Below, in pieces: positions 52,824-53,162 of a stretch of DNA of 64,000 nt. The first letter of the stretch is position 1, and every line of letters begins with the position of its first letter. The DNA is taken from NCBI RefSeq assembly GCF_003018115.1, contig NZ_CP027457.1; one strand, written 5' to 3'. The notes beneath the pieces are model-generated. The model worked only from the letters and a program-made list of their open reading frames with translations. It was not told where the DNA came from and did no database searches. Origin of the DNA: Escherichia coli. GTDB taxonomy: Bacteria > Pseudomonadota > Gammaproteobacteria > Enterobacterales > Enterobacteriaceae. Made by a program: the position numbers and the translations under genes.

Positions 52824-52964
52824 TTACCGCTTACACTGTAAGAACGCCGCAATCTCCGCGCCCGCTATCCGGAACCGGAACTCGCACAGTGAACTGTGGG
52901 TGATCCAGATAATGAGCACTACCGTGATACAAATCACGGTGGTTTTTAACGGTTTTTGCGACAT
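52824..52964 (-). CDS. Hok/Gef-family type I toxin candidate (46 aa)
   Basis: Hand translation MSQKPLKTTVICITVVLIIWITHSSLCEFRFRIAGAEIAAFLQCKR; TM helix plus SLCE-R-R-E-AAF motif as in Hok/HokA; SD AAGGAG upstream. Confidence 0.55.
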   Translation of the reverse strand: MSQKPLKTTVICITVVLIIWITHSSLCEFRFRIAGAEIAAFLQCKR

Positions 52965-53162
52965 AACGCTTGCTCCTTTTACGGAGAGGCGCTAACCTTC
53001 TTCTTGCTGAAGGAAGAACGTCAGGCCTCGGGTTAAACATGAATGTTTTGTCCGGGGCCTTTTCACATCCGGCCTTCAGGTGTTCCCTCCGGCCATCAGC
53101 CAAAGGCACCCGCGCATACTGTACGGTTTTTGTCTCCTTCCGGCAATCCCGGGGCGCGATGT

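Follow-up and report, generated by a model that had tools for sequence, protein, structure and literature searches.

The window analysed here is a stretch of 64,000 nucleotides of Escherichia coli DNA (contig NZ_CP027457.1), in which the entire gap between the prophage genes for J and the tail fibre (53162-52679) is one hok/sok-type cassette. Its 5' neighbour is a 1245-aa ORF (53163..56900, minus strand), annotated in RefSeq as gpJ or phage tail tip protein, and its 3' neighbour is a 570-aa ORF (50966..52678, minus strand), annotated as a prophage tail fibre protein. These annotations, taken from 100% identical DNA of E. coli O178:H19 2012C-4431, bear out the J-stf placement proposed in the initial annotation. 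A few kb beyond the tail fibre genes the prophage ends, followed by yecD and aspS. Lambda carries lom in the gap after J, at the same position as the hok cassette here.

An intrinsic terminator (52726-52691, minus strand; ACCGCAGGCCGG GAAA CCGGUCCUGCGGU followed by U7) was located by terminator scan and folding ~100 nt past the hok stop codon, directly before the ribosome-binding site and ATG (52678) of the tail fibre gene, and corresponds to the strong terminator noted earlier 3' of the toxin ORF. Having this terminator and a promoter-like site of its own, the cassette is a self-contained unit in the J-stf gap, in agreement with its description as a moron.

Collagen-like G-X-Y repeats make up ~200 residues of the tail fibre ORF (roughly aa 135-335), and the RefSeq title of its product is "prophage tail fiber N-terminal domain-containing protein". 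The J ORF of the window opens with a TTG start and an odd N-terminal extension preceding the conserved J start; on the identical DNA, the J-like gene (segment positions 8405-12008) is marked in RefSeq as a frameshifted pseudogene. Rfam models reach their gathering scores in the host part of the window at 20743-20887 (SraC/RyeA, with SdsR/RyeB on the opposite strand), and also at 4795-5255 (a cspA-type thermoregulator leader) and 42013-42088 (naRNA4), all of them commonplace in the E. coli chromosome. We treat as noise a RAGATH-33 match at 50694-50793 that stays below threshold (E=0.88).

The 46-aa toxin ORF

The hok-like toxin ORF (52824..52964, stop codon included, minus strand) encodes 46 aa (MSQKPLKTTVICITVVLIIWITHSSLCEFRFRIAGAEIAAFLQCKR) and is present in the ORF list exactly as first quoted. 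The good Shine-Dalgarno (SD) sequence ascribed to it is an AAGGAG (52978-52973, minus strand) read 8 nt 5' of the ATG. Direct reading of the peptide reveals an N-terminal hydrophobic helix followed by an SLCE..R...E.AAF core with a conserved Cys. The ORF matches Pfam PF01848 (HOK_GEF) at E=2.5e-11 (43.4 bits, model positions 8-42 of 42) and PHROG 251, "MokW-like host killing" in the moron category, at E=3.4e-21 (76 bits, residues 1-45). The Hok/Gef HMM check suggested in the initial annotation thus gave a significant result, so the assignment does not fail for want of a Hok hit; the two profile matches put the Hok signature far beyond chance and confirm the ORF as Hok/Gef. BLASTP aligns residues 10-44 with R1 Hok and K-12 HokB at 39-40% identity, including the LCE, R.R and E.AA positions.

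In RefSeq the identical protein, WP_000078853.1, is called simply "Hok/Gef family protein", a generic name. Among NCBIfam models, those for HokA and the Hok family match the toxin at E ~1e-9, HokA being the best NCBIfam match, and both remain below threshold, with 38.2 bits against a curated cut-off of 89 for the HokA equivalog NF007290 and 37 bits against 73 for the Hok family subfamily NF007279. Because these scores lie far below the cut-offs, we regard the toxin as a divergent branch and not as an orthologue of a named K-12 gene. No match to the toxin was obtained among PADLOC defence models or PDB sequences. A second tblastn match of the toxin within the window (6629-6543, E=0.003) is due to chance, as the ORF there is not Hok-like and Rfam is empty.

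Relatives were collected from IMG/VR by exact match to a 22-mer at the 3' end of the ORF, giving at least 120 viral contigs and 60 distinct 490-nt units; the invariance of the 22-mer is by construction, and part of the invariance near the ORF 3' end is a collection artefact. All but one of the distinct relatives (59 of 60) keep the 46-aa ORF intact, the exception having a frameshifted C-terminus. Entropy by codon position in the alignment of relatives is 0.36/0.18/0.50, second positions varying least, a substitution pattern of the coding type.

The predicted hok mRNA and antisense gene

A hok promoter-like site (53146-53118, minus strand), identified by reading the sequence, comprises a -35 TTGCCG (53146-53141), a 17-nt spacer and a -10 TACAGT (53123-53118), and homology among the different phage settings starts at this site. 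The predicted 5' end of the hok mRNA is G 53111, the first G of GGGTGCC, within the invariant GCGGGTGCC. A sigma-70 scan with a threshold of 9/12 listed no promoter on either strand at the cassette. Against the consensus, the hok promoter-like site scores 8/12 and the Sok-like promoter described below 6/12, both weak, and since the scan listed neither, both were placed by homology.

Combining blastn, alignments and Rfam delimits a core hok-type mRNA of ~360 nt (53111-52752, minus strand), within an overall length of ~360-420 nt. The core roughly coincides with the span of DNA similarity to hok loci of plasmids and phages. In blastn against plasmids, the alignments to hok loci (72-77% identity) start at 53147 to 53113 and end at 52808 to 52751, so that the DNA similarity spans the whole transcription unit and not the ORF alone. 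Over its entire length (1-157), the Rfam model RF01794 ("sok") aligns to 53111-52953 (minus strand), with 50.3 bits (E=2.8e-9); the window leader does not reach the gathering score of 59, and hokB and hokW score 110-114. At the annotated K-12 hokB and 933W hokW loci the model lies on the hok-sense strand, opposite sokB and sokW. RF01794 therefore represents the sense-oriented hok mRNA leader, of which the window holds a divergent version.

The two ends of the predicted mRNA pair with each other. A tac-like 5' element (53111-53095, minus strand; mRNA nt 1-17; GGGUGCCUUUGGCUGAU) and an fbi-like 3' element (52771-52754, minus strand; mRNA nt 341-358; AUCAGCCGGAUGGCACCU) form a duplex of -35.9 kcal/mol in the window allele, a pairing also present in the minimum free energy (MFE) fold. 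Duplex energies range from -28 to -36 kcal/mol in 27/27 distinct allele end combinations. The pairing recurs in the RNAalifold consensus of 34 alleles, with compensatory columns 10-12 / 358-360, where both sides change at three pairs (CG/GC 21:13, GC/AU 30:4 and UA/UG/CG 21:9:4). Indels in the second segment defeat fixed-column covariation, and per-allele duplex energies and the RNAalifold consensus were used there. Cognate 5' and 3' ends pair only slightly more strongly than non-cognate ends (-31.2 vs -28.6 kcal/mol), a difference so slight that it is weak as a sole measure. Such 5'-3' end pairing is the tac/fbi hallmark of hok mRNAs. A 60-aa ORF on the same strand (52635-52817) covers the fbi region, the terminator and the start of the tail fibre gene, and its counterpart in phage 1720a-02 is annotated "hypothetical protein"; in all likelihood this ORF is a false call on the 3' untranslated stretch of the hok mRNA.

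Folding of the leader, suggested earlier as a way to find fold-back structures, predicts a target hairpin and an SD hairpin in addition to the end pairing. The antisense-target (sokT-like) hairpin (53023-52994, minus strand) is composed of a UUCUUC/GAAGAA stem and the loop CUUCAGCAA, and is kept in 25 distinct alleles through compensatory stem changes. No stretch of the cassette varies more than the mRNA segment facing the tail of the antisense RNA described below (53023-52997), with 15 of 27 columns varying in the window's clade; in the coding region of the same clade, 3 of 138 columns vary. A dcb-like 3' box (52783-52774, minus strand; UUGCUGAGGG) is expected from folding to mask the loop of the target hairpin as long as the mRNA is full-length, its pairing with the leader loop CCUUCAGCAA being part of the full-length MFE structure. 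In-silico 3' truncation by 30-50 nt abolishes this loop-to-3'-box pairing and frees the local hairpin at 53023-52994. The pairing is also found in the consensus structure (columns 105-115 / 339-349), where its covariation is weak.

The hok SD is predicted to pair with a CUCC six nt upstream, in a local hairpin at mRNA nt 118-147 (MFE); the 34-allele consensus includes its outer stem, and the CUCC:GGAG pairing occurs only in the single-sequence fold. In the predicted folds, the region of the hok start codon is base-paired to the end of the coding sequence. After the stop codon, a G+C-rich hairpin (52814-52790, minus strand) has compensatory changes at columns 311-316 / 325-330. In this allele, a C-to-G change and an extra G turn its 5' arm into a run of nine G, in place of which close relatives carry GGCGGGGGAG; the nine-G allele costs the otherwise covarying stem one G-C pair, now a mismatch.

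On the opposite strand, homology places a Sok-like promoter (52970-52998, plus strand) with a -35 TTGCTC (52970-52975) that overlaps the hok SD, a 17-nt spacer and a -10 TAACCT (52993-52998). The -10 region, AGGTTA in hok-strand letters, is nearly invariant in the relatives. The sokW gene of phage 933W is preceded by TTGCCT-17-TAACCT, whose position relative to the hok SD, spacing and -10 hexamer match those in the window, and it is this TAACCT hexamer that is altered in a published promoter-less sokW mutant (PMC8621323, Table 2, primer YO-421 vs probe YO-597).

The predicted Sok-like antisense RNA is ~59 nt long (~53006-53064, plus strand), both ends being placed indirectly; its likely 5' end, G 53006, lies 7 nt past the -10 TAACCT. 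It would consist of an 18-nt 5' tail, a hairpin GGCCUCGG...CCGGGGCC (53024-53059) and a UUUU tract, and folds at -22.3 kcal/mol (z = -2.0). The G-U pairs of this hairpin are valid on the plus strand only and become A-C mismatches on the other strand. Across 37 distinct Sok-like alleles, variation is high in the tail and the hairpin is conserved, and the annotated K-12 sokB has an identical architecture and hairpin base. At the level of sequence, the leader thus appears to contain an antisense gene with promoter, 5' tail and terminator hairpin. The initial annotation had not identified a Sok-like antisense RNA; a predicted gene is now located, co-linear with the annotated sokB and sokW.

The mok-like frame and the distribution of the cassette

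In the R1 mechanism mok is an essential part, and R1 mok ends 4 nt before the hok stop. The cassette contains a mok-like frame of 69 codons (53040-52831, minus strand) from AUG 53040, traced from the ORF list and by allele comparison; the ORF list extends it to GTG 53109 (52831..53109, minus strand, 92 codons). Its position relative to the hok frame is that of mokB, and its end falls 7 nt short of the toxin stop, comparable to R1 mok, which also finishes close to the hok stop. No SD is present upstream of AUG 53040, the only plausible mok start in the window, and no start codon lies 7 nt after the conserved GAGG, the position of the mokB AUG. In the window's clade the long frame is found in 3 of 13 alleles; the other 10 close it after 10-31 codons, most of them by a stop codon in the target-hairpin loop. 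Across the 60 relatives, any ATG, GTG or TTG upstream in the mok frame occurs in ~21, at scattered positions, and in ~39 there is none. No other conserved leader ORF was found among the 60 alleles.

A classical hok/mok/sok arrangement, with Hok translation coupled to an overlapping mok and the antisense blocking mok translation, would account for a frame that runs from AUG 53040 through the hok start in the mokB relative frame, ends 7 nt before the hok stop and begins inside the region that the Sok-like RNA would cover. We nevertheless give this arrangement little credence: the AUG is without an SD, no start codon follows the GAGG that serves as mok SD in hokB, the frame ends early in 10/13 clade alleles, and upstream in-frame starts are confined to ~21/60 relatives at scattered positions. 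Because an SD is lacking and most alleles are interrupted, the mok look-alike of this allele is probably fortuitous and should not be annotated as a gene; comparison of the alleles leads us to conclude that the 46-aa subfamily lacks mok. Of the mok-hok mimicry first described, the overlapping frame at 52831..53109 is real, but its being a genuine mok is not supported, as it is without SD and not conserved.

The cassette is a member of a phage-borne 46-aa Hok subfamily in lambdoid, Stx and P2-like phages. Tblastn of the 46-aa peptide retrieved 139 phage records, in which it is annotated variously as "host toxic membrane protein", "small toxic polypeptide", "Hok/Gef family protein", "MokW-like host killing" or "hypothetical", or is left unannotated. 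Three settings recur: after J in lambdoid prophages (the window, and phage 1720a-02 at 94.9% identity), after the Ail/Lom gene in 933W-type Stx phages, and between ogr and int in P2-like prophages. DNA near-identical to the window allele is present in 141 of 5426 complete E. coli genomes, always on the chromosome; a genome has it in 2 places at the median and in 5 at most. A literature search for the 46-aa Hok subfamily or for hok at the J-stf position found no paper.

One viral contig, IMGVR_UViG_2757320577_000007, carries two complete 46-aa hok cassettes in tandem (7576-8359), 497 nt apart, with a terminator of its own after the first, different toxins, and the target-hairpin alleles CCAACTAACCTAGACAATTAGAAGG and CCGAACAACCTTAAGCAAGTGATAGG. 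Copies in the same genome do not invariably carry distinct target hairpins, as two prophage contigs share an allele: copy 1 of this contig has the same target hairpin as another prophage contig of the same genome.

Several chromosomal hok loci of K-12 are inactive, and the cassette might likewise be a decaying, silent hok relic that no longer makes toxin or antisense RNA. The weakness of both promoters, neither listed by the scan, would fit such decay, as would the missing mok, the post-stop hairpin mismatch of this allele and the frameshifted C-terminus of one relative. Set against this are an ORF intact in 59/60 distinct alleles with second codon positions least variable, long-range RNA pairings kept by compensatory changes, a distribution that takes in three unrelated phage types and no fewer than 120 viral contigs, and the fact that no IS element interrupts the cassette, and we consider decay very unlikely.

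Proposed mechanism and comparison with known systems

We interpret the locus as a hok/sok-type type I toxin-antitoxin cassette carried by a phage, its toxin belonging to the 46-aa Hok subfamily, with a probability of roughly 0.85. The scheme applied here reportedly goes back to work of the Gerdes laboratory on R1, and its steps are drawn by analogy with R1 hok/sok and Sp5 hokW/sokW. A weak constitutive promoter would produce a stable full-length hok mRNA, which 5'-3' pairing and the pairing of target loop and 3' box would keep closed to both translation and antisense binding. Slow 3' trimming would then allow the mRNA to refold and expose the target hairpin, with which the 5' tail of the short-lived Sok-like RNA would pair, so that the mRNA would be silenced or degraded. 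Once the Sok supply stopped, Hok would be translated, insert in the inner membrane and kill or lyse the cell. This could happen when the prophage is lost, when an infecting phage shuts off transcription, or when, during induction, late transcription from J reads through the convergent Sok promoter.

As the subfamily has no conserved mok frame, silencing would most likely proceed through duplex-triggered decay or RNA structure, and blocking the translation of an upstream frame seems the less likely route. Physiologically, the cassette could serve prophage addiction, exclusion of other phages or lysis help. Activation at induction is plausible, because the cassette sits between two co-strand late genes with its antisense promoter facing late transcription; the late-operon position is not required, given the P2-like setting between ogr and int.

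Help in late lysis can be put in a stronger form, in which Hok would be made from Q-antiterminated read-through from J as an auxiliary membrane-damaging peptide, the antisense serving only to silence it in the lysogen. The ORF lies between J and the tail fibre gene and is co-directional with both, the Sok-like promoter faces oncoming late transcription, and the Sp5 hokW/sokW locus loses its antisense, makes toxin after mitomycin C and approximately doubles phage release (PMC8621323). However, the same cassette is found outside the late operon, between ogr and int, in P2-like prophages, and hokW is not in the late tail operon of 933W. We hold this role possible, at somewhat less than even odds; it is a physiological role compatible with the hok/sok-type toxin-antitoxin reading, not a different mechanism.

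A more specific version of the hok/sok-type reading is tentative, and we think it somewhat unlikely to hold as a whole: a mok-less variant silenced directly by decay or structure, in which the hypervariable hairpin and Sok tail would form a specificity module and the J-stf position would provide release by late read-through. With such a module, the several copies that prophages bring to an STEC genome (2 at the median, as many as 5, and tandem in one contig) could coexist without cross-protection, and at the J-stf position late read-through would collide with the Sok promoter and unleash the cassette. If the subfamily is indeed mok-less with a copy-specific variable hairpin, it would offer a convenient natural system in which to study the evolution of specificity among type I antitoxins and the role that such toxins play for temperate phages of Shiga-toxin-producing E. 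coli.

The cassette is real but ordinary, a known kind of system whose gene is already annotated as Hok/Gef in RefSeq. With that annotation, a phage "host killing" moron family and a characterised sister locus, hokW/sokW, its discovery value is small. What is new is a base-level map that includes the predicted antisense gene, together with the negative result on mok, and the value lies in the anatomy, since antisense gene, promoters, 5'-3' pairing and terminator can be placed to the base. Overall, the Hok/Gef toxin and the self-contained J-stf cassette of the initial annotation stand, and its mok frame is not supported as a real feature.

Among the closest known systems is hokW/mokW/sokW of the Stx2 phages 933W and Sp5 (annotated in AF125520), also a prophage-borne hok/sok locus in STEC. 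In the Sp5 Stx prophage, hokW/sokW was shown experimentally to be a toxin-antitoxin pair of type I, with toxicity and RNA antitoxin activity and a partial dependence on RNase III and Hfq; after mitomycin C, sokW RNA is lost and toxin is made in a RecA-dependent manner, and the locus roughly doubles phage release (PMC8621323). The sokW promoter (TTGCCT-17-TAACCT) and that of the window (TTGCTC-17-TAACCT) have a common layout overlapping the hok SD, and the two RNAs share their build of 5' tail, hairpin and U tail. In contrast, HokW (51 aa, MKQQKAM...) belongs to a different Hok branch from the 46-aa toxin, its leader scores 113.5 bits on RF01794 versus 50.3 for the window, and its locus has an annotated mokW in frame with hokW and lies elsewhere in the phage genome. 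933W-type phages hold both hokW and a 46-aa copy after lom. In 933W (segment 2615-2827), mokW and hokW end at the same base, so that mokW is an in-frame N-terminal extension of hokW. About 2.4 kb from hokW, the 933W segment at 63-151 (plus strand) matches Rfam sRNA-Xcc1 with 69.1 bits against a gathering score of 53.

With R1 hok/mok/sok (parB), the window toxin shares the fold signature, at 39% identity over the core. The two loci have in common the tac/fbi 5'-3' pairing, the leader target hairpin, an antisense promoter with 17-nt spacing over the hok SD, and, beyond the stop codon, a hairpin and then fbi. The window locus differs in having no conserved mok, a toxin of 46 instead of 52 aa, and a phage-borne instead of plasmid-borne location; mok coupling, 3' processing and RNase III cleavage are known experimentally for R1 and only inferred for the window locus. 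The mok of the classical R1 sequence is not in frame with hok. An R1-type hok copy on an IncFII plasmid has an upstream AUG after GAGG, in frame with hok and 57 nt upstream.

The K-12 hokB/mokB/sokB locus (and hokA) has the same Sok hairpin base as the window, GGCCUCGG...CGGGGCC. Conserved GAGGCC and GGCCCCG boxes occur both at hokB and in the window, and the C-terminal Cys of HokB is kept in the window toxin, whereas the SD and AUG that mokB has just after GAGG are absent from the window locus. Like the lom/bor-type morons of lambda, the cassette is self-contained, with a promoter-like site and a terminator, between late genes. Its cargo is a toxin-antisense pair, in contrast to the Lom outer-membrane protein of lambda, and in Stx phages the related cassette adjoins the Ail/Lom gene instead of replacing it.
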